NCBI GenBank assembly: GCA_964384995.1
Contig: CAYLMJ010000001.1
Location: forward strand, 100,408 to 164,407
From: an uncultured archaeon
GTDB taxonomy: Archaea > Thermoplasmatota > Poseidoniia > MGIII > CAYLMJ01
Direction of reading: 5' to 3'
Length of the DNA stretch: 64,000 nucleotides
The position numbers were made by a program, and so were the translations under genes. Of this stretch, positions 4,601 through 42,168 are shown in pieces. Below the pieces are notes generated by a model that did no database searches, had not been told where the DNA came from, and worked only from the letters and a program-made list of their open reading frames with translations. The stretch's first letter is position 1; each line of letters opens with the position of its first letter.

Positions 4601-6841
4601 GGAACGCATAAGGTAGACCTGGTACTCCAGGGACCTGGATTTGTAGAAGAAGAAATAGAGCTCGTCATCCTCAAAGACCAGGTTGGGGTACTGGAGGGCC
4701 GAATCGTTGGCGTAGATCATCTCGGCGTCGTTCCAGCTCGCACCCTTGTCGTCCGATGTGCGAAGCCAGTACTGGTAGCGGTCATCCTGGGTGTAGTTGT
4801 AGTTGTTGTATTCGTGCCAGAGGGCATAGACATTGCCGCTGTCATCGGTCACGATGGAGGGCATGTAGGTGTAGGTGTAGTAGTTGTAGGCGTGACCCAC
4901 CCGCTGGGTCAGGACCATGTGATCGGTCCAGGTCTCACCCTCATCGGTGGACCGGGCGAAGAACCAATCGCCGTTGGTGCGGGTGCTCAGGTAGTTGCCG
5001 TTGCCGGTGAGATCGCCGCCGTCCCAGTAGACCAGGTAGAAGGTGCCGTCGTCGGCCAGGTAGACCCGAGGAGTGTAGGAATCGCCCTCGAAGAACCCGT
5101 CGGAGGCCACCAGGGTGTTGTTCCAGCTGGCACCCTCGTTCAGACTCTCCCGGACCCAGATATCGGGATCGGGGCCGATGCGCTCGCTGACACCGGGCAA
5201 TCGCACATCGTAGTCGTCGGTCCAGGTGACCAGCAGATCTCCCGAAGAGGGTGATATATCCAGTCTGACCCTTTCCCGGCCGGTGGAATAGGTATCCTCA
5301 TGGATCCGCTCGGCATCGCCAAAGGTGTTGCCGGTGTTGTCCGAGATCCTCAGCCACACATCGTCCTCCTGCCTGCTGCTCCGGTCCTGGGAGGACCAGG
5401 CCACGTAGACAAAGCTGCCATAGGCGGCGATATCGGGATAGGTGGGATAGTACTCCTCGTTGGTATCGGAGAGGGTCTGCTCGGCCTGCCAGTTGGAGCC
5501 GCCATTGGTGGAGCGGCGGTACTGGATGGTGTAGTTGAAGTCGACATTGTCGTACTCGTACCAGGTCACGAAGACGTTGCTGCCGCTGGAGGCCGCCACC
5601 TTGGGCTGATAGGCCGCGAAGGCCGAGGTGGATATGACCCGGGTGTTGGACCAGCTGTTGCCTCCGTTGGAGCTGGAACGCAGGACCACGTCGTAATCGA
5701 TGGTGTTGTCGTTGTCGAAGTTGCCGTTGTCGTACCAGGCCACGAAGATGGTGGAACCCCCCAGCGATATGTCGGGATACTGGGAGTACTGGTAGTCATC
5801 GGGGTCGGCCTTGTCGGTGGGCGATATCATGTGGATGTTGCCCCAGTTCTCGCCCCAGTCCTGGGAGGCCCGGAAGAAGATATCGTAGTTGTAATCGCCG
5901 CTGTTGTTCCAGTAGGAGTGCCACGAGGCGTAGACATTGGTGCCGCTGGCCTCGAGGGTGGGATAGTAGGGGGTGTTGGCGTAGTCGTACTCGCCGGCGA
6001 TGTTCTTGTGCTCGCTCCAGGTATCCCCGTTATCCAAGGAGCGGGTGAAGTCGATGGTGTAGTACCAGCTGCCATTGTAGTAATGACGGTCCTTCCAGGC
6101 CACGTAGACGTTGTCACCGGAAACGGCTATCGCGGGGGGATAGTTGTTGCTCATGTTTGACATGGAGATGATATCGGTCCCGCGCCATTTGGAACCGTCC
6201 CAGCGATTGTAGAATATCTGGTACAGGTTGGAGCCGGTGCGGAAGAGGTCGCCGTTGTCGGTCCAGACCACGTGGATGTTGCCGCTGGCGTCCTTGGCGG
6301 TCTGGGAGTAGCGGGAGTAGGAGCCCTGATTGGTGCTCACAGAGGCGGTGACCCCGTCCTCCAGGTCATCGGTCCCAGCGGGGCGGCCCGAGATGTCCAC
6401 TGTGGCGTCGGTGATGGTGGCGCCCTTGGGGATGAGCAGGGTGGTGGAATCGGGATCGCCGCTGTCGTCGCCGAAGGCGAAGCTGTGGGTGGTGCGGCTG
6501 GAAGCGAAGCGGGTCTGCTCGCCGAAGGCTCCGTAGCCGTTGCCCTCGTAGGCCCAGTCGATCTTATCGTTGTTGCGCACATCGATCCAGACCTTGTCCG
6601 AGTACTCCCCGTCGTCGTCCTCAGGCGAGACCAGGAAGGAGACGTCCAGGACCTCGTCGGCCGGGAAATCGATGCTGGCGTTGTAATCGACATGGTAGGG
6701 AGGCAGGCCCACGGTCACCGAGCTAACCGGCGATTCATCGAAAGTGAACTTGGTGGTGGGGGTATCGGCCCGGGCCGCAAGGCTCACGGGCAACAGGAAG
6801 CAGATAGCCAGCACAAGGGCTACGATCTTTGCCGAACGCAC
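1679..6841 (-). CDS. Giant surface protein: 12 Asp-box/BNR repeats (probably two beta-propellers), CARDB/Ig-like domains, C-terminal TM anchor, Pro-rich linker, terminal Zn ribbon
   Basis: ORF 1679..6886. The likely start is GTG at 6841, because GGTGA lies at 6847-6851 and a TATA box sits directly against the 6886 ATG. Asp-boxes: SLDNGDTW, SQDWGENW, SSNGGNSW, STNGGSNW, SDNTGNTF, SLNEGASW, STDEGETW, SDDKGASW, STDQGASW, STDGGHSF, SGDLGETW, SPDYGLNW. CARDB-like PDLEIDDLEV...VTIYNGG; TM WFYGVLVALIAGMGVGGFLFMRK; tail CPACQ..CPSCS. Confidence 0.88.
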   Translation of the reverse strand: MRSAKIVALVLAICFLLPVSLAARADTPTTKFTFDESPVSSVTVGLPPYHVDYNASIDFPADEVLDVSFLVSPEDDDGEYSDKVWIDVRNNDKIDWAYEGNGYGAFGEQTRFASSRTTHSFAFGDDSGDPDSTTLLIPKGATITDATVDISGRPAGTDDLEDGVTASVSTNQGSYSRYSQTAKDASGNIHVVWTDNGDLFRTGSNLYQIFYNRWDGSKWRGTDIISMSNMSNNYPPAIAVSGDNVYVAWKDRHYYNGSWYYTIDFTRSLDNGDTWSEHKNIAGEYDYANTPYYPTLEASGTNVYASWHSYWNNSGDYNYDIFFRASQDWGENWGNIHMISPTDKADPDDYQYSQYPDISLGGSTIFVAWYDNGNFDNDNTIDYDVVLRSSSNGGNSWSNTRVISTSAFAAYQPKVAASSGSNVFVTWYEYDNVDFNYTIQYRRSTNGGSNWQAEQTLSDTNEEYYPTYPDIAAYGSFVYVAWSSQDRSSRQEDDVWLRISDNTGNTFGDAERIHEDTYSTGRERVRLDISPSSGDLLVTWTDDYDVRLPGVSERIGPDPDIWVRESLNEGASWNNTLVASDGFFEGDSYTPRVYLADDGTFYLVYWDGGDLTGNGNYLSTRTNGDWFFARSTDEGETWTDHMVLTQRVGHAYNYYTYTYMPSIVTDDSGNVYALWHEYNNYNYTQDDRYQYWLRTSDDKGASWNDAEMIYANDSALQYPNLVFEDDELYFFFYKSRSLEYQVYLMRSTDQGASWTDPEPLRSEADAETSASYISTSVSGQNIVVGWVYSSRANYIVSTDGGHSFSEREQMPTEETVTYPQFTVDGSDIYVVWVGLEDSSDTSNDVVFMRSGDLGETWDDPIKLSQEMDVSGDYYYYVYYPSLISDDGLLYVTYLFRYTGDPQPQYDVFMAFSPDYGLNWEHGQLLSDNKDNTNAYSMYSGMTANGNAMMTWSDRDSKSNHQQIWTRMTKATSYPHDPAIDIGGDGTYEWSLTGEMNRTNSPKTWSAQDGYSTKSLKKALNDALGGGNVRQPDKWGIEMVELTIEATSSSEGRILLNEMSITYDVSLLITNTHIKKTLNYLVNNTEEDIAVAPIAVWGSSQGAVRFHSLFLDTAVADLKLTNLRTTGQPLEGHDIDVLVDVANTGTGATDLSIKFWAAEKGKPQDANLTNTIADLFIEDLPVDSEASTHSVKWNDIPDGEYNVYAQISSSDPPDLDPQASDFKVNTDITITPTSPNIAISIFEVTEEALEGDTADIRVAISNSGDRDAEVRLRLYERSKSGELVGEYILPVELEDENEHIFTWNVTQVDQLTLVAKETDIKQTEESTIDVDVRKLPFFICTNLSWDPSVVSEGTEATFTMTWEYRGDIQVTASTQLIVSRSDSPLKATPISASGRSFTQEGDTLTLTGEVSFDPVSSIFSNELEGDYIVDARIYLIKPVSIEFKDKWDPNTLEYTEQSKDLRVDPPPDLEIDDLEVEDELEGGKTTTIEVTIYNGGGSAAQGVVELYVYLVNTLPGSIPTMTYDFQVNAQDTSRMDLEWDVPRNFDGVYNFEVRLEEIQPPESQYANPNNDRTYTGVQIHGNVELNDDDSGIPVWFYGVLVALIAGMGVGGFLFMRKTAPTAGADAGGASPGALPSTPGSKPDPAAPSSPSSPAAPGAPPPDGGAPEGPPDPGGTDGPPEQLPAPVTLPCPACQTKLKVTSAERPLLISCPSCSTKLKLES

Positions 6842-6886
6842 AGATATCACCGACTGTAAATCGTCACCTTTGCTATCCGGCGACAT

Positions 6887-17533: not shown

Positions 17534-20500
17534 ATGGCCAAACGCAGTCTTGCGCTATTCGTTCTATTCCTATTTCTCGTCACCGCCATCCTGGCGCCTC
17601 TCAATCTGATGCCCACAAGCCAGGCGGCCATCGATGGCGTCCAGCCTCCAGCCGACGGGGACTGGCTCATCGATGAGGACACCAATGTCACCGGAGAGAC
17701 CATCATCCTCAACGGCAATCTGACGGTCTACAACAACTCCAAACTGGACCTGACCGACACCACCATCAAGATGAACTGCTCCTTTGCCGGAGAGTTCGAG
17801 ATAACCGTCACCGACGGAGCCAGCCTGGTGGCCGAGAACACCACCTTCACCCGCAATGGCGACCATGACTACGGCTTCCTCTTCAACAGCGGCACCTCGG
17901 GCAGCCTGGAGGGCTCCATCGTGGAGTACGCCAACGGCACCGGCGGGGACGGCCTGACCCTCAACAGCCTCGACATCACCATCAACGATACCGTGTTCCG
18001 CGAGAGCGAGTACGGTCTGATAGCCCTTGACGAAGCCGCAATCACCAACAGCACCTTCTACAACAACACCGTGGGCCTCCTGCTGGTGGAGAGCTTCGCC
18101 GCCAACGACGTGGCCGCCGACAACACATTCGTGTGGAACACCCACAACAACAGCGCCGCCAACGTGCGTTTCATGGCCGACACCACCATCCTGGTTGAGA
18201 ACCAGTACGGCGACCCGCTGGAGGAGGCCACGGTCTATCTCAACGACACCTTCGACAACAACCGGGTGGAGAACGTCACCGACGCCAACGGCGAGTACCC
18301 GGCGGGCTGGCTGGTGGCCTGGGAGGTCCTGCCCGATGACTCCAACGTCAGCTACGAGCCCTTCGACCTGACGGCCCACAAGCTGGACCGGAGCAACCTC
18401 ACCCAGGTCTATCCCTCCGAGAGCAGTGTCCTGCTGGTGGAACTGCCCCTGAGGCCCGATCTGGTGGTGGATGAGGACGGCATCATGTGGGGCCCCTATT
18501 CCAACATCCCCAGCGTGCCGGCGGGCCGCTACAACGAGACCGAATGGTACTGGACCATCCAGGACAGCTCCGAGGACCCGCCCGACAACTGGACCCAGCT
18601 GGGTTTCAACGATTCGGCCTGGGAGCTCGCTCCGGGCCCGTTCGGGGACCAGAACCTGGGCAGTGTCAACTACAACACCCACTGGACCGAGGACAACATC
18701 GCCTACTTCAGGCACTACTTCACCCTGCCCGACAACATCATCATCTTTGGCGGCACCCTGTCATCCTCCTCCAACAACTACGGCTCCTACTACGTCAACG
18801 GCGATGAGATCTTCTCCGACTGGAGGCAGGGGGGAGGCCACGGCGCCGAATACTGGAACGACCAGGACACGGTGCGCCCAGCCCAGCTAAATGCCGGGCA
18901 GACAAACATCATGACCGCCCTGGTGGAGGAGACCGGGAACACCCAGTGGTTCGACGCCCAGCTGGATGTGTCGTACATGATGCCCGGCCGCAGTTCACTG
19001 GTGGTGGACCATCCGGTCGCCTTCCTGGTGCCGGTGGAGAACCTGGGGGTGGAGACCGCCTCCGGGGCCGACGTGAAGCTGTACAACGGCTCGAACCTCA
19101 TCGACACTCAGACCGTGGACCTGCAGGCCGGCGAGAGGAAGGAGCTCTTCTTCGAGTGGGATCCCACCGAGAGCGGCAACCAGACCCTGCGCATCGAGGT
19201 GGACGAGGGGAACACCATCGAGGAGGAGAACGAGACCAACAACAATGTCACGCTGGAGGTCTTTGTGGGCAACTACGGGGTGAATCTGACCCTCGATGGG
19301 AACCGCACCGCCACGCCCTTCAACGAATCGGTGACCTTCAACATGACCGTCGAGAACATCGGTGACATCGATGACAACGCCACCCTTTCGGTCCAGGACC
19401 TGCCCAACGGATGGTTCGCCCAGGCCGAGCCCAGCCTGCTCCCCCTGGGACCCGGTGACAGCCTCGATTCGACGCTGACCGTCCTGCCCGAGAGGGGCGC
19501 GGACGTGGGCAACTACTCCTTCCATGTGGTGGCCACCTCCCAGCACGAGATGGGCTCCTCCACCAGGCTCGAACCGGTGGTGTTCTCGGGCAGGGACAAC
19601 GGGACCGAATACCGGTACAAGAAGTACGACGACGACGATGATGTTCCAGGCAGCTGGTATCAGCCAGGATTCAACGACACCAACTGGAGTACCGGTGACG
19701 GGCCCTTTGGCAACCAGCAGAATGCCGGTGTTGATTACGGAACATACTGGCAGTCCACCAATGCCAGCGGGAACGATGGAGACAACGATTACATCGCCAC
19801 CCGCCACTATTTCGACTACAAGCCCAACGACGCCGTGATCGGGGCCTACTTCAACATCGCCTACGACAATTACTTCGCGGTCTATCTCAACGGGGATGAG
19901 GTCAGGGACTGCCTCAGCTACAGCGGCTACTGCTACGAATCGGACGTCGAGTACTGGAACCGGCAGATCGACGTGGACGAGGACCTGCTGTTGGAGGGCC
20001 GGAACGTGCTGGCCGTCATGGGCCGTGACAGCCTGTGGCAGGGCGGCAACGGCAACCAGTGGCTGGACATGGAACTGGTGGTGGAGATCAAGGTCATCCT
20101 GGGAAGCGGCCGGGAGGTCACCATCGAGGTCGAGCCGACCCACGATTTCGACCTTCAGGGTTACAGCGCGGAGCGGAACCACGCCACCAACACCTCCAAC
20201 ATCTATCCCATCCGGCTGACCAACTACGGCCATTTCAACGAGACCCTCCAGGCCGAGCTCACCGTCCTCGATTCCACCGGGGACTGGACCGCCGACCTGG
20301 TCAACTCCAGCCTCAACGTGACCGCCGGGGCCACCGACCAGTTCGGCATCGATGTCTTCGGCGAGCCCACCCTGGAGACCACCGACTACCTGAACCTCTC
20401 GGTGGACCTGTGGATGGAGGGCCTGCCGTGGATCAACTACACCTACTATCTCAACCTCACCGCCGAACCTCCCTTCCACCAATTCAGCCTGGACGAGTAC

Positions 20501-23014
20501 TACGGCGACGAGGAACAGCTCAACGGCACCACGATCACCTACTACATCGACATCAACAACGAAGGCAACGTGCTGGACACCTTCGTCCCCACCCTCAACA
20601 TCACCGGCATCAGCGGCACCTGGGACGTATCGTTCACCACCACCAGCCTGGGCATCCACGCCTACTCCGAGGCCCAACTGGGCGTCATCGTGGAGACCGA
20701 CGAGGACCTGCGCTTCTGGGACTACCTCAACCTCACGGTGAACCTCACCATCGTGGAGGCTCCCGAGCTGTACCAGGTCTTCACCCTGAACCTCACCCCC
20801 ATCTTCAACGACAACGACCCGCCCGACACCAACGTGGTGGAGATGGAGCGCTGGGCCAGGGAGTCCACCATCACCGTCGAGTGGGAGGTCACCCGCGACC
20901 GCGACGACACCGCTTACTTCTACATCTACTACAAGACCATGGACCCCAACGGCACCATCTCGGACTACCAGCTCTGGGACACCTACCCGGCCAACGTCAC
21001 CTCCGACACCTTCGACGTTCAACACGGCTGGGTCTACTACTTCTACAGCCTGGGCCAGGACGGCTCCAACAACCTGGAACTGGACCGCGGCACCTACGAT
21101 GCCTACGTCATCGTCGACCTCGAGCCGCCCACCTCGGGCTTCTGGCTCACCGAGCTGGGAGAGGGCGTGGCCAAGGGCATCACCAACGCCACCGAGCTGG
21201 GACTCAACTGGGAACCGATCAACGCCACCGAGGCCAATCCCGATTACGACTTCACCATCCAGGTCCGCAATCGCACCCTGGCCGGGACCTTCGGACCCTG
21301 GGTCACCATCGATGAGCTGGACAACGTGAGCATCCAGCAGGGTGAGTACAACCCCCTGGACGGACGTATCTACCAGTTCCGCTCCATCGCCACCGATGAA
21401 GCGGGATGGGTCGAGGACAAGATCAACTGGGACGTGCAGGTCACCATCGACGCCTCGCCTCCCCGCTCGGGACTCGAGCTGCCGCCCGCCATCACCAAGA
21501 CCGAATCCCACATCCTGAACCTGGTCTACGAGGACAAGGACGATGTGGAGCGTCTGCAGGTCCATTACGCCCACTTCCCCGATGGCGAACCACCCATCGA
21601 GTATACCTGGCTCAACGGTGGCTCGTTCCAGGGGGCCAACGTGCCCGACGAGCTCACCTTCAGTCAGCTGAAGGACGGCCAGCGCTACATCTACCGGCTC
21701 ATGACCACCGATGACAACGACAACCAGGAGGTGCGAGAGGGGGTCGTGGAGCACTACACCGGCAACGGCAGTCACGGCCAGTCCATCAAGCTGGCCAAGC
21801 TCCCCGTGCCCGCCCCCACCGTGCCCTACAGCCGGGTGACCGTTGTGGTGGAGGGGGTGCAGGAGACGACCCTGCTGGAGTACTTCGAATGGGACGATAT
21901 CCCGGCCTACAAGAACACCGCCTTTCATCTTGATTACGATACCGGGACCATCCACTTTGGCGACGCCTCCACCGGCTACGTGCCCTTCGACGGCGCGAGA
22001 CTGCGCATCACCTACGACGCCTACGATGCCTGGACCGTGGTGGATACCAGCGCCCCCAACGCCCCCAGCGTCATCCACCGCTTCGCCTTCGATGGCGAGG
22101 CCGGCACCGCCACCCTGAGCTGGCATCCCTCCAGCAGTGACGATGTGGTGGCCTACCGCCTGGAGATGGCCACCGACATCTCCGGTCCCTGGACCGAGGT
22201 GGACACCATCCCCGCACCCGCCGAGAACCGTGACATCAACGACATCGTCGTCGAGGGGCTCTCGGCCGATACAAAGTACCACTTCCATGTCATCGCCATC
22301 GACCGCGCCGACTGGGAATCGACCCCCAACAACCCCATCACCGTCAACGAGAAGCCGGTGACCAGCGACGGCGACGATGACGATGGCGGCACGGGCTCGG
22401 GGGCCCTGCTGATCCTCCTGCTGGTCCTGCTGGCCTTTGCCGGAGGCATGGCCTTCATCCTCAACAAGCGCAAGGAGGCCATCACCGCCCCGGTGGTGGA
22501 AGGACTGCCAGCGGCACCGGCCGGTGAGCTGGTTGCGGTGACCGGGGAGACTGCGGATATCACCCAGGCCACCGGCGTTGTGGTGGCCGCCGATGACGAA
22601 CCGAACTTCGAGGCCATCGAGGGTTCCGATGGAGAGTTCTCCTGCATGGCCTGTGGGAACATCTTCAAACCCGAGCCGGATGACGGGGCCATCACGTGCA
22701 CCGCCTGCGGGCAGACCGAGGAGGCCCCGGCGGCACCAGCCGAACCGGTGACCGAGGACCCGGGGAAACCTGAGGCCGGGGGCGATGAGGGGCCCAAGGA
22801 AGCCGAAGGGCCGGCGGTGACCGAAACGGAAGAGGTGAAGGCCGAACCCGTCGTGGAATCCGTGAAAGCCGAGGAAACCGCGGGGGAGGCGAAGGTGGAG
22901 GCTGAAGAACCAGCGGCGCCGGCGGAACCCGCCGAGCCTGCGGAGGAGGCCCCAACGGCCCAGCAAGAGGAAGCAGAGGCAACCCCGGCAGGCGATGAGG
23001 ATACCACGAACTGA
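17534..23014 (+). CDS. Giant surface glycoprotein paralog 1: beta-helix, two galactose-binding-like cassettes, CARDB, NEW3/Ig repeats, baseplate-like insert, FN3, TM, Zn ribbon, acidic tail
   Basis: GGTGA-N4-ATG; signal peptide MAKRSLALFVLFLFLVTAILAPL; CARDB end EVDEGNTIEEENETNN; cassette motifs W....FNDSAW....GPFG and YFRHYF; FN3 APNAPS...TATLSW...VVAYRL...YHFHVIAID; TM; CMAC..CTAC. Confidence 0.88.
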   Translation: MAKRSLALFVLFLFLVTAILAPLNLMPTSQAAIDGVQPPADGDWLIDEDTNVTGETIILNGNLTVYNNSKLDLTDTTIKMNCSFAGEFEITVTDGASLVAENTTFTRNGDHDYGFLFNSGTSGSLEGSIVEYANGTGGDGLTLNSLDITINDTVFRESEYGLIALDEAAITNSTFYNNTVGLLLVESFAANDVAADNTFVWNTHNNSAANVRFMADTTILVENQYGDPLEEATVYLNDTFDNNRVENVTDANGEYPAGWLVAWEVLPDDSNVSYEPFDLTAHKLDRSNLTQVYPSESSVLLVELPLRPDLVVDEDGIMWGPYSNIPSVPAGRYNETEWYWTIQDSSEDPPDNWTQLGFNDSAWELAPGPFGDQNLGSVNYNTHWTEDNIAYFRHYFTLPDNIIIFGGTLSSSSNNYGSYYVNGDEIFSDWRQGGGHGAEYWNDQDTVRPAQLNAGQTNIMTALVEETGNTQWFDAQLDVSYMMPGRSSLVVDHPVAFLVPVENLGVETASGADVKLYNGSNLIDTQTVDLQAGERKELFFEWDPTESGNQTLRIEVDEGNTIEEENETNNNVTLEVFVGNYGVNLTLDGNRTATPFNESVTFNMTVENIGDIDDNATLSVQDLPNGWFAQAEPSLLPLGPGDSLDSTLTVLPERGADVGNYSFHVVATSQHEMGSSTRLEPVVFSGRDNGTEYRYKKYDDDDDVPGSWYQPGFNDTNWSTGDGPFGNQQNAGVDYGTYWQSTNASGNDGDNDYIATRHYFDYKPNDAVIGAYFNIAYDNYFAVYLNGDEVRDCLSYSGYCYESDVEYWNRQIDVDEDLLLEGRNVLAVMGRDSLWQGGNGNQWLDMELVVEIKVILGSGREVTIEVEPTHDFDLQGYSAERNHATNTSNIYPIRLTNYGHFNETLQAELTVLDSTGDWTADLVNSSLNVTAGATDQFGIDVFGEPTLETTDYLNLSVDLWMEGLPWINYTYYLNLTAEPPFHQFSLDEYYGDEEQLNGTTITYYIDINNEGNVLDTFVPTLNITGISGTWDVSFTTTSLGIHAYSEAQLGVIVETDEDLRFWDYLNLTVNLTIVEAPELYQVFTLNLTPIFNDNDPPDTNVVEMERWARESTITVEWEVTRDRDDTAYFYIYYKTMDPNGTISDYQLWDTYPANVTSDTFDVQHGWVYYFYSLGQDGSNNLELDRGTYDAYVIVDLEPPTSGFWLTELGEGVAKGITNATELGLNWEPINATEANPDYDFTIQVRNRTLAGTFGPWVTIDELDNVSIQQGEYNPLDGRIYQFRSIATDEAGWVEDKINWDVQVTIDASPPRSGLELPPAITKTESHILNLVYEDKDDVERLQVHYAHFPDGEPPIEYTWLNGGSFQGANVPDELTFSQLKDGQRYIYRLMTTDDNDNQEVREGVVEHYTGNGSHGQSIKLAKLPVPAPTVPYSRVTVVVEGVQETTLLEYFEWDDIPAYKNTAFHLDYDTGTIHFGDASTGYVPFDGARLRITYDAYDAWTVVDTSAPNAPSVIHRFAFDGEAGTATLSWHPSSSDDVVAYRLEMATDISGPWTEVDTIPAPAENRDINDIVVEGLSADTKYHFHVIAIDRADWESTPNNPITVNEKPVTSDGDDDDGGTGSGALLILLLVLLAFAGGMAFILNKRKEAITAPVVEGLPAAPAGELVAVTGETADITQATGVVVAADDEPNFEAIEGSDGEFSCMACGNIFKPEPDDGAITCTACGQTEEAPAAPAEPVTEDPGKPEAGGDEGPKEAEGPAVTETEEVKAEPVVESVKAEETAGEAKVEAEEPAAPAEPAEPAEEAPTAQQEEAEATPAGDEDTTN

Positions 23015-23075: not shown

Positions 23076-23110
23076 ATTGAATTGGGTTGCCAACCTTGCG
23101 GGTGAATATC

Positions 23111-26100
23111 TTGGCCAAACGCAGTCTTGCGCTTCTCGTTCTATTTATCTTTCTCGTCACCGCCATCGTGGTGCCCCTGAACTGGCTGCCCAACTCCCAG
23201 GCGGCCATTGTCGGGGTCCAGCCTCCGGCCGATGGGGACTGGGTGATCGATGAGAATACCACGGTGACCGATGAGACCGTAGTGCTCAATGGAAATCTCG
23301 TGGTCACCAACAGCTCGAAACTGAGCCTGGTAGATTCCACCATCAAGCTCAACTGCACTGCCGATGGCGATTACGGCATAATGGTCGGCGATGGAAGCAG
23401 CCTGGAGGCCAGCAATACCATCTTTACCCGCAATGGCGACCATGCCTACACCTTTTACCTCGCCGAGGGCTCGACCGGCATCCTGGAAGGCTCCACGGTG
23501 GAGTACGCCGCAGGCAGTGGCGATGACGGCCCGTTGATGTACACCTCCGATCTGGTCATCAACAACACCGTGTTCCGAGAGAGCGAGTACGGGCTGGCCA
23601 TCACCGGAAGCGCGACCATCACCAACAGCACCTTCTACAACAACACCTTGGGCCTGCTGTTCTACGGCGGGGTAGCCGCCAACGACGTGGTGGCCGACAA
23701 CCTCTTCGAGAAGGACGGCTTCAACAACAGCGCCGCCAAGGTGCGCTACGCGGTCACCCCCACCATCACGGTGGTGGACCACAACGAGGCCCCGGTGGAG
23801 GATGCCACGGTCTACCTCAACGACACCTTCGCCACCAACGTGGTGGACGATGTCACCGATGGCGATGGCAAGTCCTATCCCGACATACTGGTGACGGCCT
23901 GGGAGATCCAGAACGACGACACCAACGTCAGCTACGAGCCCTACGACCTGACGGCCCTGAAGCTGGGCAAGGAGAACACCACCCAGGTCAACCCCTCCCA
24001 GGGCAGTGACCTGGATGTCGAACTGCCCCTGAGGGCCGACCTGACGGTGGACGGGGCCGAGCTGATGTGGGGTCCCGGAGGTTCTATCCCCCTGGTGCCC
24101 GCAGGACGTGACAACGACACGCTGTTCACCTACAACCTTTACTTCAACACCGATGACATTCCCGATGGCTGGTACGAGACCGACTACAATGACAGCGATT
24201 GGCTCACAGGTGCCGCACCCTTTGGAGATCGCCAGACCCAAGGGGTCGATGAGAACACTGACTGGGACGAGAACTCAGAGAGCTGGCTGCCCACCCGCCA
24301 TTGGTTCTACCTCCCGGACGACATCACAATCGACGATATTGTACTGAACATCGCCTTCAACAACTACGCATTACCCTACATCAACGGTCATCTCATCTTT
24401 GATGAGAGGGGAGGAGACCAACATGGTGCTCAATACTGGAACAACGACGGCATGGCCACCCTCAACAATGACTGGTTGAACTTCGGCGGCTACAACCTGC
24501 TGGCCGTGAGAGGCCATGACGGAGGTGGAGGCGGTTACAACAGCCAGTGGCTGGACATGGAACTGATGGCCAACTACGTGGACGTGGGCCGCCTGGGCCT
24601 GGTGGTGGACCAAGAGGTCATCGTGGTCTTCCCGGTGGAGAACCAGGGAGTGGCGGAAGCCCAGGGCGCGGCGGTGGAGCTCTACAACGGCTCGACCCTC
24701 ATCGGCTCGACCTCCTTCGATATCGCGGCAGGAGGCACCCGGGATGTGAGCTTCGAGTGGACCCCCGACACCAGGGGCTACGAGAACCTGACGGTGAAGC
24801 TGGACCCGGACGACTCCATCGAGGAGGAGCTGGAGGACAACAACGAGGCCCTCGTGGAGGTCTTCGTGGGCGACTTCGGGGTCAACATCACCACGGATTC
24901 CAACACCTCGGCCAAACGCTTCAACGAAACGGTCTACTTCGATCTCAACCTCACCAACGTAGGTGACATCGATGACAACATCACCCTGATGGTCAATGGT
25001 CTGCCCCGTGACTGGGAGGTCATCCTGACCCCCGAACTGGCACCCCTGGGACCCGGCAACAGCACCATCGTGAACCTGACCATCCATCCCGAGGTCGGTG
25101 CCGACACCGGTTTCTATGACTTCTCGGTGGTGGCCACCTCCAAGTACGGCGGCACCCAGAGCTTCGGCGTCGTTCCCTCGGGCCTTGACAACGAGACCCA
25201 GTGGAAATGGCTCGAGGACCTGGCGGAGGAGGACGATATCCCCGAGAACTGGACCAAGTTCGATTTCGACGATTCAAGCTGGGATTGGGATCCGGCACCC
25301 TTTGGCGATAGTGACCTGGGTGGCGGCAGGGACCGCAACACCGAGTGGTCCGGGAACGAGGAGCACGCTCTCTTCAGGCATTACTTCACCATCCCAAGCG
25401 TGGACGGGGTCATTCAAGGGGCCACCATGGGTTTCTCATCCAACAACTACGGCTCCTATTACCTGAACGAGGAGCTGCTCTTTTCCGATTGGAACGATGG
25501 GCAAGGCCACGGGGCCGAGTACTGGAACGAGGAGGATGCGGTGGATCTCTCCCTCCTGCGCATGGATGAGGTCAATCTGGTGGCCTGCCTGGTGGAGGAA
25601 AGGACCAACACCCAGTGGTTCGATGCCGCCCTCTATCTCGATGTCCTGCTGGGTTCCGTCCAGCCCGCCTCGGTGGAGATCGAACCCACCCATTTCTTCG
25701 ACCTGAACCAGTACGCCGCCGCCCGCAACCACCCCACCAACACCACCCAGTACTACCCCATCCGCATGACCAACTTCGGCCATTTCGAGGATGTCATCCA
25801 GGCCGAGCTCACCATCCTCGATTCCACCGGCGATTGGACCGCCCAGCTGGTCAACACCAGCCGCACCATGGCCGCCGGGGCCGCCGACCAGTTCGACATC
25901 GAGGTCTTCGGCGAGCCCACGCTGGAGAGCACCGACTACATGAACCTCTCGGTGGACCTGTGGATGGAGGACCTGCCGTGGATCAAGTACACCTACCACC
26001 TCAACCTCACCGCCGAGCCTCCCTTCCACGAGTTCGATCTGGACGCCTACTACGCCGACGAGATGCAGCTCAACGGCACCACGATCACCTACTACATCGA

Positions 26101-28387
26101 CATCAACAACCTGGGCAACGTCCAGGACACCTTCGTTCCCACCCTCAACATCACCGGCATCAGCGGCATCTGGGACGTTTCGTTCAGCAGCGCCAACCTC
26201 TCCATCCACGCCTACAGCGAGGCGCAACTGGGCATCATCGTGGAGTCCGACGAGGACCTGCGCTTCTGGGATTACCTCAATCTCACGGTGAACCTCACCA
26301 TCGTGCGCGCCCCCGAGCTTTACCACATCTTCACATTGAACATCACCCCCTACTTCAACGACAACGACCCGCCCGACACCAACGTGGTGGAGCTGGAGCG
26401 CTGGGCCAGGGAGTCCAACATCACCATCGAGTGGGAGGTCACCCGCGATCGCGACGACACCGCCTACTTCTACGTCTACTACAGGACCATGGACCCCGAC
26501 GGGGCCACTTCCGATTACGAGCTGTGGGACATCTACCCGGCCAATGTCTCCTCCGACACCTTCGAGGTGGAGCATGGCTGGGTCTACTACTTCTACAGCC
26601 TGGGCCAGGACGGCTCAAACAACCTGGAGCTGGACCGCGGAACCTACGACACCTACGTCATCGTCGACCTCGAGCCGCCCACCTCGGGCTTCTGGCTCAC
26701 CGAGCTGGGAGAGGGCGTGGCCAAGGGCATCTCCAACAGCACCGAGCTGGGACTCAACTGGGAGCCGGTCAACGCCACCGAGGACAATCCCGACTACGAC
26801 TATACCATCCAGGTCCGCAATCGCACCTTGGCCGGGGCCTTCGGACCCTGGGCCACCATCGAGGGTCTCAACAACGTGAGCATCCAGCAGGGCGAGTACA
26901 ACCCCCTGGACGGACGCATCTACCAGTTCCGCTCCATCGCCACCGACGAGGCGGGATGGGTCGAGGACAAGATCCACTGGGACGTGCAGGTCACCATCGA
27001 CGCCTCACCACCCCGTTCGGGACTCGAGAGGCCGCCCGCCATCACCAAGACCGACACCCACACCCTGGACCTGGTCTACGACGACAAGGACGATGTGGAG
27101 CGTCTGCAGGTCCATTTCGCCCAGTTCCCCGACGGCGAGCCGCCCATCGAGTACACCTGGCTCAATGGCGGCTCCTTCCAGGGCGCCAACGTGCCCGACG
27201 AACTGACCTTCAGCCAGCTCAAGGACGGCCAGCGCTACATCTACCGGCTCATGGCCACCGATGACAATCACAACCAGGAGGTGCGGGAGGGCATCGTGGA
27301 ATACTACACCGGCAACGGCAGTCACGGCCAATCCCTTAAGCTCGCCAAGCTCCCCGTGCCCGCCCCCACCGTGCCCTACAGCCGGGTGACCGTGGTGGTC
27401 GAGGGAGTGGAGGATACCACTCTCCTGGAGTACTTCCAGTGGGACGACATCCCGGCCTACAAGAACACCGCCTTCCATCTCGATTACGACACCGGGACCA
27501 TCAACTTCGGCGACGCCTCCACCGGCTACGTGCCCTTCGATGGCGCGAAACTGCGTATCACCTACGACGCCTACGACGCCTGGACCGTGGTGGACACCAG
27601 CGCCCCCAACGCCCCCAGCGCCATCCACCGCTTCGCCTTCGATGGCGAGGCAGGCACAGCCACCCTCAGCTGGCACCCCTCCAGCAGTGACGACGTGGTG
27701 GCCTACCGCCTGGAGATGGCAACCGATATATCCGGTCCCTGGACCGAGGTGGAGACCATACCCGCCCCCGCCGAGAACCGTGACATCAACGACATCGTGG
27801 TCGATGGACTCTCGGCCGATACCAAGTACCACTTCCATGTCATCGCCATCGACCGCGCCGACTGGGAGTCGGGACCCAACAACCCCATCACCGTCAACGA
27901 GAAGCCCGTCACCAGCAACGGCGACGATGACGATGGCGGTTCGGGCTCGGGGGTCCTGCTCATGCTCCTGCTGGTGGTCCTGGCCTTCGCCGGAGCCATG
28001 GCCTTCATCCTCAACAAACGGCGGACCGACATGCTGGAATCCGACGTGGAAGGTACCCCGGTCGCCGCAACCGGCCAGCTGGTCCCGGTGACCGGCGAGG
28101 TGGCTGCCGGAGCGGGGCTGGCGGTGGTGGAGGAGGAGACCGGTTTCGAGGAGGTCCCCGACTCGGAGGGCGAGTTCGCCTGTCTGGCCTGTGGGATGTT
28201 CTTCAGACCCGATGATGCGGGACCCACCCTGACCTGTCCGGCCTGCGCCCAGGTCGAGGACCGCCCCGGGAACGAGGAAGTTTCGGTGGCGGATGAAGGT
28301 TCCAAGGCCGAGGTCGCCGACCCGGCGGATGAACCCGTCGAGGTCGCAGCGGATGAGGCCGAGACTGAAGAGGATCCAGCCCAGTAA
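23111..28387 (+). CDS. Giant surface glycoprotein paralog 2 (same architecture)
   Basis: GGTGA (23101-23105) then TTG at 23111 gives (M)AKRSLALLVLF, matching the N-terminus of paralog 1. Colinear with paralog 1 at a fixed 5550-nt offset over about 2.2 kb. Tail CLAC..CPAC. Confidence 0.88.
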   Translation: MAKRSLALLVLFIFLVTAIVVPLNWLPNSQAAIVGVQPPADGDWVIDENTTVTDETVVLNGNLVVTNSSKLSLVDSTIKLNCTADGDYGIMVGDGSSLEASNTIFTRNGDHAYTFYLAEGSTGILEGSTVEYAAGSGDDGPLMYTSDLVINNTVFRESEYGLAITGSATITNSTFYNNTLGLLFYGGVAANDVVADNLFEKDGFNNSAAKVRYAVTPTITVVDHNEAPVEDATVYLNDTFATNVVDDVTDGDGKSYPDILVTAWEIQNDDTNVSYEPYDLTALKLGKENTTQVNPSQGSDLDVELPLRADLTVDGAELMWGPGGSIPLVPAGRDNDTLFTYNLYFNTDDIPDGWYETDYNDSDWLTGAAPFGDRQTQGVDENTDWDENSESWLPTRHWFYLPDDITIDDIVLNIAFNNYALPYINGHLIFDERGGDQHGAQYWNNDGMATLNNDWLNFGGYNLLAVRGHDGGGGGYNSQWLDMELMANYVDVGRLGLVVDQEVIVVFPVENQGVAEAQGAAVELYNGSTLIGSTSFDIAAGGTRDVSFEWTPDTRGYENLTVKLDPDDSIEEELEDNNEALVEVFVGDFGVNITTDSNTSAKRFNETVYFDLNLTNVGDIDDNITLMVNGLPRDWEVILTPELAPLGPGNSTIVNLTIHPEVGADTGFYDFSVVATSKYGGTQSFGVVPSGLDNETQWKWLEDLAEEDDIPENWTKFDFDDSSWDWDPAPFGDSDLGGGRDRNTEWSGNEEHALFRHYFTIPSVDGVIQGATMGFSSNNYGSYYLNEELLFSDWNDGQGHGAEYWNEEDAVDLSLLRMDEVNLVACLVEERTNTQWFDAALYLDVLLGSVQPASVEIEPTHFFDLNQYAAARNHPTNTTQYYPIRMTNFGHFEDVIQAELTILDSTGDWTAQLVNTSRTMAAGAADQFDIEVFGEPTLESTDYMNLSVDLWMEDLPWIKYTYHLNLTAEPPFHEFDLDAYYADEMQLNGTTITYYIDINNLGNVQDTFVPTLNITGISGIWDVSFSSANLSIHAYSEAQLGIIVESDEDLRFWDYLNLTVNLTIVRAPELYHIFTLNITPYFNDNDPPDTNVVELERWARESNITIEWEVTRDRDDTAYFYVYYRTMDPDGATSDYELWDIYPANVSSDTFEVEHGWVYYFYSLGQDGSNNLELDRGTYDTYVIVDLEPPTSGFWLTELGEGVAKGISNSTELGLNWEPVNATEDNPDYDYTIQVRNRTLAGAFGPWATIEGLNNVSIQQGEYNPLDGRIYQFRSIATDEAGWVEDKIHWDVQVTIDASPPRSGLERPPAITKTDTHTLDLVYDDKDDVERLQVHFAQFPDGEPPIEYTWLNGGSFQGANVPDELTFSQLKDGQRYIYRLMATDDNHNQEVREGIVEYYTGNGSHGQSLKLAKLPVPAPTVPYSRVTVVVEGVEDTTLLEYFQWDDIPAYKNTAFHLDYDTGTINFGDASTGYVPFDGAKLRITYDAYDAWTVVDTSAPNAPSAIHRFAFDGEAGTATLSWHPSSSDDVVAYRLEMATDISGPWTEVETIPAPAENRDINDIVVDGLSADTKYHFHVIAIDRADWESGPNNPITVNEKPVTSNGDDDDGGSGSGVLLMLLLVVLAFAGAMAFILNKRRTDMLESDVEGTPVAATGQLVPVTGEVAAGAGLAVVEEETGFEEVPDSEGEFACLACGMFFRPDDAGPTLTCPACAQVEDRPGNEEVSVADEGSKAEVADPADEPVEVAADEAETEEDPAQ

Positions 28388-28529
28388 TACCCAGCTAGCT
28401 CCTTGAACCTGAAGATATCCTAGAATTACCAGGGACCTTGGGAGGTAAGGATATTATTCGGGCCCTGCCGAGGGCCTGGATGATGCCTATTTATACTATG
28501 TTCGGGTTGAATTGGCCTCGGGTGATAAC

Positions 28530-31500: not shown

Positions 31501-34364
31501 GTGATGAGGAGCACACGGGAGGCTCCACGGTGTACTACCCCATCGAGGTCACCAACAGCGGCAACCTCAACACCACCCTCAAGGCCACCTACCAGGTCCT
31601 GGACCAAAGCGGCAACTGGACCGTCGGGCTGGCACCCGCCCAGCTCACGCTTCAGGAGGACGAGGTCGGCCAGTTCGACCTGGAGGTCACCGGGGCCAGG
31701 GACCTGCGCGACTGGGACCATCTCAACGTCTCGGTGACAGTCTACCTTGACGACCACTTCGAGCTCAACGAGACCTACCTGCTCAACCTCACGGCGGTGG
31801 AGGCCGACCGGGGGTACTCACTGCACAGCGATTTCGAGAACCACAGCCAGCTGAACAACACCGTGGAGGTCTACTCCCTGACGGTGACCAACCTGGGGAG
31901 TCTCGATGAGATCGTCCTGGCCAACGTGACCATCCTCGAGCAGAGGGGGAACTGGTCCGTCAGACTGCTGGACGACAGCGTGGACCTGGCGGAGGGTGGC
32001 ACGGCGGATGTGGAGATCGAGGTGACGGCGGCTCCCGAACTGCGTTTCTGGGATTACCTGAACCTGTCGGTGGAGGTCACCCTGGAGCAGGGGGCCTGGC
32101 TTCGGGACAGCTACGTGCTGAACGTGACGCCCATCTTCGACGACCATTACCCGCCCGAGACCCGCCTTGTGCCCATGGGCTCCTGGGTGAGGGAATCCAA
32201 CGTGACCCTGGAGTGGGAGGTCATCAAGGATGAGTTCGACACCTTCTACTTCCAGATCCATTACCAGACCGAGGATCCCGGAGGCAACACCTCCGAGTGG
32301 GGTCTGTGGCAGACCTTCAACTACACCACCACCTCGGCCACCTTCCCGGTCCAGGACGGCTGGAGCTACTACATCTACAGCCTGGGCCAGGACGCCCAGG
32401 GCAACCTGGAGCTGGACAAGAAACCCCTCTGGGACAACCATTTCACGGTGGACCTGGAACCCCCCCAGACCCGCCTGTGGCTGACGGATCCGGAACTGGC
32501 AGTGAACAAGGGAACGGTGACCCAGACCGAGCTGGGCCTGGAATGGGCCCCGGTGAACCACTCCAGCCATGCCGATACCGACTACACCTACACCATCGAG
32601 GTCCGCAACCGCTCGGCGGACGGGGCCTTCGGGCCCTGGCAGCCGATGGTGGGTCTTGCGGACACAAAGGTCCAGAACGGCGATCTGGAGGCCCTGGACG
32701 GTCACACCTACCAGTTCCGCTCCATCGCCACCGACCCGGCCGGATGGGTGGAGAACAAGAGCGGCTGGGACCTCCAGGTGGCCATCGACCAAACACCGCC
32801 GGTGACCGGCATCCTGCCCCTGCCCGCCATCCGGGCCGAGACCGAGGTCACCCTCCTGCTGGAATACGAGAACAAGACCGATGTGGCCGAGCTCGAGGTC
32901 CAGTACACCAACTTCCCGGAGGACACACCTCCCAACGAGTATGTCTGGCTCAAGGGGGGCACCTTCCAGCCGGGCCTTCAGGGCCTGCCCGACGACCTGC
33001 AGTTCACCAAGCTGAGCGACGGACAGCGCTACCTCTTCCGCCTCATCGGGACCGACGCCATGGGGAACGTCGAGCCCAGGGACGGGGTCGTGGAGTACTA
33101 CGTGGGCAACCAGACCCCCGGTCAGACCCATCAACTGGGGAAACTGCCCCTGCCATCCCCTTCGACCCCCTACAGCAAGATCAAGGTGGAGGTGGACCCC
33201 GATGGTGATGGCGATTTCGAGGACACCCTGGTGGAGTCCCTTGACAGCGAGATACCCACCAACTCCCCCAACACCTTCCATCTGGACTACACCACCGGCG
33301 TGATCCACTTCGGCCATGGCACCGCCGGCTTCGTGCCCGCCAATGGCACCCAGATCAGGATCACCTACGACGCCTACGACACCGGCACCCTCATCGATTC
33401 CGTGGCTCCCAACGCCCCCGGCGTGTTCGTCAGGTCCGAGTTCAACGAGACCGACGGATCGGCCGAGCTCATCTGGAGGATATCCTCCAGTCCCGACGTG
33501 GTGGCCTACCGCGTCGAATGGACCACCGACCTGAACGGGAACTGGACCGCGGGCCCGGTCGTGGCGGCGGTCTACAAATCGGAGGTGGTCGGCGCAACCC
33601 TGCGGGGCCTGCCCACCGACAAGACCCTCTACGTGCGGGTGGTTTCCGTGGACCGGGCGGGGCTGGAATCGCCGGCCAACGCCTTCGCCACGGTGAACGA
33701 GCAGGCCGTGGAAGGCGAGGATGACGATGACGAAGGCTTCGACCCGACGGTCATGTACGCGCTCTTCCTGCTCAGCCTGGTGGCCTTCACCGTGATCGGC
33801 TACATGCTAATGAGAAGGAAGGACGAGCCGGCCTCGCCCCCGGGATTGGAGCCTCCCCCGCCGGCGGGTGTCTCGGTCATCCCAGCCCAGGAGGCCCGGG
33901 TGGTGGCGGCCCTGGAGGCCCACACCGTATACAAGCGGCCCCAGGGAAACCCCGATGAGCTGAACTGTCCCGATTGCGGATATTACTACACCCCGACGGG
34001 GGAGGACGAGGACCCCGCCTGCCCGGCCTGCGGCTTCCAGGATTCGAAGGTGGATGCGGAGGAGAAAGGGCAGGACGATGGACCGACCGGGGACCTGGAT
34101 GAAGATAAAGAGTCTGAGAAAGAACCAGGCACCGAGCCGGAGAAAGGGACGGAGCAGGACAAGGAAGATGAGGAAGTGCCGGGAACGGACTCGGATGATG
34201 AGAAACGCGGTGAGACCGAAGACCTGGAAGGTTCGGATGATGCCTCCTCCGAGGAACCCGTCCCCGCCGATAGTGATGAGGGAGCCACGCCTCCTGCCGA
34301 AGATGCAGAGAGCAAGGCAGATAGTGAGGATGTTGAGGCACCCGACAAGGATACCGAACAGTAG
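28530..34364 (+). CDS. Giant surface glycoprotein paralog 3 (more divergent, one extra Ig/NEW3-like module)
   Basis: GGTGA-TAAC-GTG at 28530; same domain order; TM VMYALFLLSLVAFTVIGYMLMRRK; CPDC..CPAC; long D/E-rich tail. Confidence 0.88.
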   Translation: MASRRYAISFSLLLLLSSLLLPGPWNSPAHGSMTGDEPPTDGDWVVEHNSTVRDESITLNGNLTVTNSSVLDLANVILRLNCTLPDEFSINVEAGSSLIADNTTFTRGGQHNYSFTFAGGSAGALNDTLIEYAGASSRMGLTLQSEAVSLTNSTIRESYNGVVVQSPARIASNTIYNTSVGLALANSDAGNDVEADNTFEHEDHGNTIANIRSYRPVTVVIQDQDGQGLEAARVYLNDTLGGNWVDSLTPADGRIGPISQVVWEVTPGGVNQSLEPFDLIATKHGRSNSTRVTPSNTTTLTLELKLLPDLAVEDSQILWGATPVSLTVVPSGRDNDTQFKYRIMDDPSQFPSGWYEPGFNDSAWNVSAAPFGDKDQAGTDLNTIWDSEGEDPYTKDHLLLRHRFTLPEGARVLDSALNVAFNNYCTPYLNGNKIYDERGSNTHSASYWNGDGDADVDPDHFTAGENVMAIYGRDYVYQSHGQNSQWLDFQLTAEYYIPGRGDLVVDYSTLIVTTVENRGVAAAQGVQVNLYNDSTLMETKTVDLGVGEQKNVFFDWTPGHNGTQVLTVEVDESQAIEEENETNNNASAEVFVGGYGINLTTDDNHTAITYNLSHQFNLTAFNYGDINDNVTLALTPMNDVTGWQTHLSPQLLEMEPQERLNTSLSIQPVRGAPVGNYSFIIAANSQFQSTGYTTLVPSHSDWRWLDTDNPPAGWEESDYNDSGWSEAPAPFGAGSNFEDEATEWGGNGWSSDDEAVFRLRFDLTRPIKEAVLKLAVADGARAYLNGVQVVDDLQGDNNDGSRGASHWDYITGEKPSGLAALDLGLLNIGENVLAIRVFDTGRANFFDAEFDVAYHSENTQELVVEILPTHDFDLGSYTDEFEHPTNTTQVYTINLHNYGHFNETIEAQLQVNDQQGDWTHNLSADNLTLEPGTGGSLTLEVFANESLTLEDYLDLTFTFQSQEAPWVNHTYDLFLWADPPHYEFELTDPSGDEEHTGGSTVYYPIEVTNSGNLNTTLKATYQVLDQSGNWTVGLAPAQLTLQEDEVGQFDLEVTGARDLRDWDHLNVSVTVYLDDHFELNETYLLNLTAVEADRGYSLHSDFENHSQLNNTVEVYSLTVTNLGSLDEIVLANVTILEQRGNWSVRLLDDSVDLAEGGTADVEIEVTAAPELRFWDYLNLSVEVTLEQGAWLRDSYVLNVTPIFDDHYPPETRLVPMGSWVRESNVTLEWEVIKDEFDTFYFQIHYQTEDPGGNTSEWGLWQTFNYTTTSATFPVQDGWSYYIYSLGQDAQGNLELDKKPLWDNHFTVDLEPPQTRLWLTDPELAVNKGTVTQTELGLEWAPVNHSSHADTDYTYTIEVRNRSADGAFGPWQPMVGLADTKVQNGDLEALDGHTYQFRSIATDPAGWVENKSGWDLQVAIDQTPPVTGILPLPAIRAETEVTLLLEYENKTDVAELEVQYTNFPEDTPPNEYVWLKGGTFQPGLQGLPDDLQFTKLSDGQRYLFRLIGTDAMGNVEPRDGVVEYYVGNQTPGQTHQLGKLPLPSPSTPYSKIKVEVDPDGDGDFEDTLVESLDSEIPTNSPNTFHLDYTTGVIHFGHGTAGFVPANGTQIRITYDAYDTGTLIDSVAPNAPGVFVRSEFNETDGSAELIWRISSSPDVVAYRVEWTTDLNGNWTAGPVVAAVYKSEVVGATLRGLPTDKTLYVRVVSVDRAGLESPANAFATVNEQAVEGEDDDDEGFDPTVMYALFLLSLVAFTVIGYMLMRRKDEPASPPGLEPPPPAGVSVIPAQEARVVAALEAHTVYKRPQGNPDELNCPDCGYYYTPTGEDEDPACPACGFQDSKVDAEEKGQDDGPTGDLDEDKESEKEPGTEPEKGTEQDKEDEEVPGTDSDDEKRGETEDLEGSDDASSEEPVPADSDEGATPPAEDAESKADSEDVEAPDKDTEQ

Positions 34365-41995: not shown

Positions 41996-42168
41996 AACAG
42001 CTCACTGGGGCCTTGTCAGCCAAGATTCGCTATTAAGATTTTCTACACAACCCGGGCGAACCGCCATCCTTATTTACCAGCAGTTCCAAGCAATTTGCTA
42101 TAGCTCGGCTTGCCCGAGGTGTGATCATGGTAGCTTCGATGGGTTCGGACGGACCCTTCGGTGACCCT

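Follow-up and report, generated by a model that had tools for sequence, protein, structure and literature searches.

A baseplate J/gp6-type beta module in the stalks of three tandem archaeal surface proteins

The region studied here is a 64-kb stretch of DNA from an uncultured archaeon (64,000 nucleotides, ~63% G+C), referred to below as the window. It contains three consecutive open reading frames (ORFs) on the plus strand, which encode the tandem paralogs P1, P2 and P3 of 1,766 to 1,950 amino acids. Each of these large surface proteins carries a beta module that is related to a domain of the baseplate wedge proteins of phages and contractile injection systems (CIS). The features of the three genes are as follows.

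17534-23014, plus strand: surface paralog P1, 1826 amino acids; the public gene call agrees
23087-28387, plus strand: surface paralog P2, 1766 amino acids from the TTG at 23087; the public gene call, from 23102, gives 1761 amino acids
28512-34364, plus strand: surface paralog P3, 1950 amino acids from the TTG at 28512; the public gene call, from 28626, gives 1912 amino acids
21755-22048, plus strand: module of P1 (residues 1408-1505), a Baseplate-J/gp6-type six-strand beta module by profile and model
27305-27598, plus strand: module of P2 (residues 1407-1504), ~93% identical to the P1 copy
33099-33401, plus strand: module of P3 (residues 1530-1630), ~50% identical to the P1 copy and with a DPDGDGDFED insertion
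21449-21754, plus strand: FN3-like beta-sandwich that immediately precedes the P1 module (borders approximate, from the AlphaFold2 model)
22091-22345, plus strand: Pfam fn3 match of P1 (residues 1520-1604), the next domain after the module
22403-22462 (P1), 27953-28012 (P2) and 33750-33812 (P3), plus strand: transmembrane helix
22643-22711 (P1), 28181-28249 (P2) and 33966-34034 (P3), plus strand: CxxC...CxxC zinc ribbon, predicted to be cytoplasmic

Each paralog starts with a hydrophobic stretch resembling a signal peptide. In P1 this is followed by a beta-helix-like head, CARDB, NPCBM_assoc, an FN3-like array, the baseplate-type module, FN3, the transmembrane helix, the zinc ribbon and an acidic tail. 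Pfam searches detected Beta_helix in P2, CARDB in all three proteins and NPCBM_assoc in P1; in P1 and P2 the fn3 match immediately precedes the C-terminal hydrophobic helix, and in P3 it is sub-threshold. Weak matches to the NCBIfam 'choice-of-anchor T' family were also obtained. The proteins contain 17% D+E versus ~4.5% K+R, and 40 to 56 N-x-S/T sequons. The transmembrane helix is followed by basic residues, the zinc ribbon, whose four cysteines are invariant across seven family members, and the acidic tail; the NKRK sequence directly after the helix of P1 suggests that the C-terminal tail would be cytoplasmic. Antisense ORFs overlapping P1-P3, for example the one at 18995-22966 on the minus strand, are best read as G+C artefacts.

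Comparison of P1 and P2 revealed a mosaic of identities, with 28-63% in the heads, 84-94% in the stalk (P1 residues ~1050-1640, module included) and 41% in the cytoplasmic tail. This suggests either that variable heads are placed on a conserved stalk, or that the 3' halves of the two genes underwent recent gene conversion. A repeated domain of ~150 amino acids occurs twice in the heads (P1 residues ~330-480 and ~690-850, window positions ~18520-18975 and ~19600-20085), with equivalents in P2 and P3. This repeat has the motif 'GFNDS.W...P.PFGD......T.W........RHYF.LP...........NNYG.YY.NG.....D......H..EYWN', ends in 'QWFDA.L' and has no Pfam match; visual inspection suggests a similarity to a lectin or jelly-roll sugar-binding domain, an assignment that is putative.

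A previous sequence-only reading of the window had proposed that all three paralogs contain one baseplate-wedge-like segment. The peptides quoted in support of it, at 21761-22015, 27311-27565 and 33105-33368, translate exactly as given, and scanning all six frames of the window with the module profile yielded exactly three copies, one in each of P1, P2 and P3. According to both profile and structural model the module measures ~98 amino acids, slightly more than the spans first given. The family was defined by an alignment of archaeal together with baseplate copies (alignment A2), and we treat it as an unnamed J/gp6-associated six-strand beta module. Besides having the six-strand fold, the window copies fit the collinear motif G.(S/P).Q..L...P ... 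V.V ... (W/L).E ... (F/Y)..D...G.I.FG.G..G..P..G..I.I.Y. In its FGxG..G..P stretch the F, G, G and P are invariant or nearly so in all 39 copies of the alignment. Archaeal copies have a first loop of the form G-N-x-(S/T), which is a glycosylation sequon (GNGS, GNQT, GNNS or GNAT; at 21761-21772 in P1, and at the corresponding positions of P2 and P3), and in the baseplate copies this loop has the form G-(L/S)-P-G-Q. Judged by sequence, the sequon would fit an adaptation to a glycosylated extracellular setting. Downstream of the module, the window proteins continue with TYDAYDAWTVVDTSAP and then the FN3 domain, and true J members with Y.xGGG..GN(V/L), the entry to the J core.

The relationship with baseplate proteins was detected by profile searches in both directions; a word-index homolog search with an isolated segment of 125 amino acids returned nothing. 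TIGR02243, the NCBIfam model 'putative baseplate assembly protein' (Cis11/Afp11-type, gpJ/gp6-like; 659 model positions), matched the window proteins over positions 341/357-444, with E-values of 2.8e-4 for the isolated P1 module, 5.5e-4 for a larger piece of P1, 5.5e-3 for P2 and 7.7e-3 for P3, and it also matched four of six diverged family members. These matches cover only this part of the model, and the scores of P1-P3, 14.8-19.6 bits, are below its curated cut-off of 155.8 bits. Pfam PF04865 and phage P2 gpJ have been treated as equivalent to TIGR02243, and TssF of the type VI secretion system is reported to resemble this family and T4 gp6 (PMC4604203). For the reverse search we used a profile built from six archaeal copies only (A1) in a full HMMER search of 1.84e9 representative proteins, in which 38 matches had E<=1e-3 (matched proteins are given numbers of the form P0020). 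About 20 of them belong to the archaeal surface family and 11 are of the baseplate type; four others (P0013, P0035, P0025 and P0033) were left out as spurious repeat or low-complexity proteins. Whole-library E-values for Baseplate_J proteins were 2.7e-16 (P0020), 8.5e-13 (P0023), 1.5e-8 (P0029), 2.8e-6 (P0032) and 9.5e-6 (P0036). Most of the baseplate-type matches share the conserved N-terminus ...W.D.N.SDPG(I/V)T.(I/L)(E/D)LFAW..., and the Baseplate_J core was found in six of the six that were tested against Pfam. Local iteration gave an alignment that is full-length and collinear in the archaeal and baseplate groups. When used on the sequences of the PDB, the A2 profile detected residues 302-395 of Streptomyces coelicolor Cis11 (9gtp, E=3e-10) and residues 166-240 of BplA of phage P1 (9ay5, E=6.5e-5), both of which are wedge proteins of the gp6/J type in their respective machines.

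The fold points in the same direction. The AlphaFold2 model of the P1 module based on alignment A2 consists of six beta strands (pLDDT 91.3). The same six strands were obtained when the stretch comprising the FN3-like domain, the module and FN3 was modelled from an alignment of the archaeal family only (pLDDT 91.0, pTM 0.82), and thus the fold does not depend on the baseplate sequences. The pTM of this second model suggests that the domains would have a fixed arrangement. In a Foldseek search of the PDB with the isolated module the only meaningful match was Cis11 of 9gtp (probability 1.00, template-modelling score (TMq) 0.65, 22% identity). Immunoglobulin (Ig), Fab and other beta proteins remained at TMq <=0.42, with a probability of <=0.3 for the Ig and Fab entries. 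Against BFVD, 12 of the 20 best matches were myovirus proteins named as baseplate J, gp6-like, baseplate assembly or wedge proteins, their TMq values being 0.6-0.71 and their probabilities up to 1.00; among these were a gp6-like protein from Vibrio phage Kuja and J9PV89 from Bacillus phage BCD7. The module therefore does not have an ordinary Ig or FN3 fold. The sequence-only reading had considered it an insertion in an Ig-like domain, a view that we reject: in the model it appears as a discrete domain flanked by two FN3-like sandwiches. In addition, the Pfam fn3 match begins downstream of the module, and no Pfam family covers the segment itself.

These results bear on the possibility that the resemblance is due to chance, or to a compositional motif in an ordinary Ig/FN3 domain. 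In line with such an explanation, the isolated segment had no match in Pfam or PHROGs, and the archaeal-only profile detected only noise among the PDB sequences (ABC ATPases, and a Gp10 at E=0.28). However, the profile matches are significant in both the forward and the reverse direction, and hence the resemblance is not a chance one; furthermore, the alignment is collinear over the whole module and J-type proteins top two structure libraries, with Ig domains at TMq <=0.42. The reverse profile search and Foldseek on PDB and BFVD refute a chance motif, the likelihood of which we consider close to nil. In agreement with what had been proposed from the sequence, the module is homologous, in sequence and in fold, to the TIGR02243/Baseplate-J/gp6-type wedge domain.

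What the window proteins have in common with wedge proteins is limited to this module, i.e. the internal beta module of TIGR02243 (model positions ~341-444). The PF04865 Baseplate_J core was not found in P1-P3 at E<=0.1, nor in 300-amino-acid pieces of them at E<=10. The N-terminal core-bundle/trifurcation region is also absent: P1-P3 start with a signal peptide followed by a beta-helix, and on its upstream side the TIGR02243 alignment stops at position 341. P1-P3 thus share the accessory module only, without the J core or the core-bundle region. Cis11 (PDB 9GTP), a TIGR02243/Baseplate_J protein, contains the same module of ~90 amino acids at residues 302-395, with the motif G.PGQ..L...PV ... 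W..V ... H..(V/L)D..TGEI.FG ... G..PP.G..I...Y. In Cis11, however, it is combined with an N-terminal core-bundle and a C-terminal Baseplate_J core in a cytoplasmic wedge, whereas in the window proteins it stands alone in a stalk of FN3 domains predicted to be extracellular. The same module is detectable in phage P1 BplA (9AY5) and in J/wedge proteins of myoviruses such as J9PV89. This domain is not specifically described in the papers on the 9GTP and phage P1 structures.

Within baseplate proteins themselves the module is variable. Baseplate-type proteins contain one to five copies in tandem: five in P0020 and P0023, three in P0031 and P0037, and two in P0029, P0032, P0036 and P0041. In P0020, P0023, P0029, P0032, P0036 and P0041 the Pfam Baseplate_J match starts at about profile position 75, directly after the last copy. 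The five copies of P0020 (L013, 10001-13096) occupy residues 318-777, and its gene is part of a canonical extracellular contractile injection system (eCIS) cluster that encodes a gp19-type tube protein, CIS_tube/LysM, a VgrG-like Phage_base_V protein, PAAR, gp25, P0020 and Tail_P2_I. This cluster also encodes, between gp25 and the J-like gene, a protein of 1134 amino acids without a Pfam match. Two copies are present in P0039, a Tail_P2_I (gpI/gp7-like) protein. In P0032, the last module copy and the J core can be aligned with J proteins from phages of Streptomyces, Bacillus, Maribacter and Leptospira. T4 gp6 gave only a weak, collinear but non-significant alignment over residues 195-275 (3.8 bits), and no match was found in the minimal proteins P2 gpJ and Mu gp47. 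Since these last two proteins lack a match, the module is not universal in the J family. In baseplates it is an accessory mobile unit and not a part of the wedge core. The large accessory domain IV of Alg11 of AlgoCIS has been described as two carbohydrate-binding modules that protrude from domain III (PMC8894135). Together with the multi-copy eCIS variants such as P0020, it points to a tolerance for variable accessory domains upstream of the J core; those are additions to a real wedge protein, whereas the module of the window proteins lies wholly outside a baseplate context.

The sequence-only reading had left the choice between a co-opted baseplate module, serving in oligomerisation or as a decoy, and a docking site for a contractile system encoded elsewhere. 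Neither is supported by the finding that only an accessory module is shared and that this module also occurs in non-baseplate proteins. If the module were a docking site or decoy, P1-P3 would be tied to a CIS or a tailed archaeal virus, by homotypic contact with a baseplate module or by mimicry, and the three paralogs would be envelope partners of, or defences against, a phage-tail-like machine in an uncultured archaeon. The module is indeed the same as that of Cis11-type wedge proteins. Cis11 is cytoplasmic and forms a wedge with Cis12, and the Streptomyces membrane protein CisA is predicted to contact it (PMC12237407). In addition, P0036, a module-bearing Baseplate_J protein, is strongly acidic and may be archaeal. 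However, the predicted contact involves the cytosolic part of CisA (PMC12237407), whereas the module of P1-P3 would be extracellular and contains a glycosylation sequon. Moreover, a Pfam scan of the 38 largest ORFs of the window, smaller ones not being scanned, revealed no sheath, tube, gp25, J, gpI, spike or PAAR gene, consistent with the earlier statement that the window contains no other tail genes; likewise, no tail or CIS gene is present among the called genes of two related loci, L011 and L012. We consider docking or decoy function very improbable.

The presence of the module outside baseplates is a further point against docking. The A1 profile detected it in two GH51-like alpha-L-arabinofuranosidases, P0030 and P0043, where it lies between matches to ASD1_dom and Alpha-L-AF_C. 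P0030 (Paenibacillus radicis WP_258214246.1) has two copies, at residues 253-335 and 851-934, and P0043 has one at residues 558-648. A third protein detected with this profile, P0040, combines the module with PKD. The module alone, given its occurrence in enzymes and a PKD protein, does not imply an association with baseplates. A word-index search with A2 returned 11 small proteins only. Four of these, P0052, P0055, P0056 and P0057 (104-132 amino acids), consist mostly of the module plus a conserved C-terminal extension with the sequence 'ALW(V/I).IRNR(T/P)K.IS' (one locus, L015, 8001-8372). The genes neighbouring P0056 are ethanolamine-utilisation and 2-oxoacid dehydrogenase genes, without tail genes. 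At least one of the 11, P0051, has the look of a piece of a disrupted J gene, located in a tail cluster.

A domain common to baseplates, glycosidases and archaeal adhesin-like proteins might bind a small ligand, for instance a glycan. Such a role would agree with the GH51-like arabinofuranosidases, with the peripheral, surface-exposed position that Cis11 has in the baseplate of CIS-Sc (PMC12237407) and with the two carbohydrate-binding modules described for Alg11 (PMC8894135). Contrary to it, neither Pfam nor Foldseek gave a match to a carbohydrate-binding module or lectin family, and the invariant or nearly invariant columns (F, G, G and P) include no obvious ligand-binding residues. In the window proteins, moreover, ligands would be encountered at the distal head, a long way from the membrane-adjacent module. 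Ligand binding thus appears rather improbable.

The contacts through which T4 gp6 dimers form a ring lie in its C-terminal part. By re-using a contact surface of the wedge, the module could act as a lateral self-association element through which the paralogs dimerise or oligomerise into a membrane-proximal array. The wedges of both CIS-Sc (PMC12237407) and phage P1 (10.1101/2025.07.21.665459) contain two copies of the module-bearing protein, and one contact between the two BplA copies of a phage P1 wedge has been reported to involve Arg189, which falls in the module span 166-240 (preprint 10.1101/2025.07.21.665459). That the module lies where P1 and P2 are most conserved would also agree with self-association. 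Nevertheless, the window proteins lack the C-terminal part to which the T4 gp6 dimer contact is ascribed. Moreover, tandem arrays of three to five copies and insertion in glycosidases of a monomeric type are more in keeping with a generic module than with a dedicated oligomerisation device. Self-association is a tentative alternative that we hold to be unlikely.

Small Ig-like, FN3 and other beta domains are common to structural proteins of tailed phages and to cellular surface and carbohydrate-active proteins. The module behaves like these shared domains in that it is mobile and occurs on virus and CIS particles, in cell-surface proteins and in the GH51-like P0030 and P0043, and it differs from Ig and FN3 in its fold. 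In our view, to which we assign a probability of roughly 60%, it is a shuffled building block of the stalk of surface proteins and not a baseplate component, and nothing links P1-P3 to a contractile machine. According to this view, P1-P3 would consist of a variable head (beta-helix, CARDB and lectin-like parts) placed on a conserved C-terminal anchor cassette, which would run from the FN3-like array through the ~98-amino-acid module, FN3, an acidic linker and the transmembrane helix to the zinc ribbon. The module, one FN3 domain away from the membrane, would most likely serve the extracellular stalk as a rigid spacer or a protein-contact element. Domain shuffling probably brought it in from a wedge gene of a virus or CIS, and the sequon in its first loop may have been gained later, as an adaptation to the cell surface. 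Transfer from viruses or CIS to the archaeal surface is the direction suggested because the module is part of the core TIGR02243 model and the archaeal surface family is rare.

Some points weigh against this stalk-element view. The direction of transfer is deduced only from relative abundance. Scaffolding need not be the only cause of the high stalk conservation; a specific binding role or recent gene conversion could also account for it. Finally, the position of Arg189 inside the module region of BplA indicates that the module can be a protein-protein interface.

The module belongs to a domain family for which the Pfam-A copy searched contains no model. Formerly the domain was visible only inside gp6/J-type baseplate proteins, and it had been solved in Cis11 and phage P1 BplA. 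The present results provide a new context for this known but unnamed domain: the same module is mobile, and its carriers also include surface proteins of archaea, GH51-like glycosidases of bacteria, a PKD protein and small ORFs. It adds a case in which cell envelopes and virus or CIS particles have exchanged a domain, and reveals no new system. A practical consequence for annotation is that a partial TIGR02243 match should not be taken as a baseplate gene or as evidence for a CIS.

Relatives of the window proteins are rare. A first scan of genome contigs with P1 yielded no match, and a second one yielded only relatives in metagenome-assembled genomes (MAGs). Close relatives are present in the uncultured-archaeon MAG CAYSUX01, and weaker ones, matching in the FN3 region, in MAGs of Thermoplasmata and 'Methanobacteriota'. 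In CAYSUX01 at least two module-bearing paralogs are in tandem (L001, 9968-15211 and 15351-21251) and a third is located on another contig (L002); thus, the tandem multi-paralog arrangement is conserved. All full-length relatives (1194-1950 amino acids) have a similar distance between the module and the C-terminus, and their N-terminal heads vary. In architecture and gene neighbourhood the proteins resemble giant archaeal adhesin-like proteins with beta-helix, CARDB, NPCBM_assoc, FN3 and a C-terminal transmembrane helix; they differ from other such proteins by the conserved cassette of FN3-like domain, J-type module, FN3, transmembrane helix and zinc ribbon.

The genes surrounding P1-P3 are archaeal housekeeping genes, together with genes for further giant secreted proteins. 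The former include genes for a geranylgeranyl reductase-like protein, an archaeal-type ArsR, TPD, a TtuA-like protein, a Na/Ca exchanger and an ABC/FtsX pair. The large proteins encoded near P1-P3 are listed below; according to the six-frame scan of the window, none of the other giant secreted proteins of this island carries the module.

1679-6886, minus strand: BNR/sialidase-like protein with CARDB, 1735 amino acids
8244-13916, plus strand: M6 InhA-like peptidase with MAM, NPCBM_assoc and CARDB, 1890 amino acids
34518-37937, plus strand: PKD protein with a multi-transmembrane C-terminal part
42121-46383, plus strand: protein of 1420 amino acids with six CarboxypepD_reg repeats

The PKD protein, encoded by the next gene after P3, also ends in a zinc ribbon (37860-37934), for which weak DZR and Zn_Ribbon matches were obtained.

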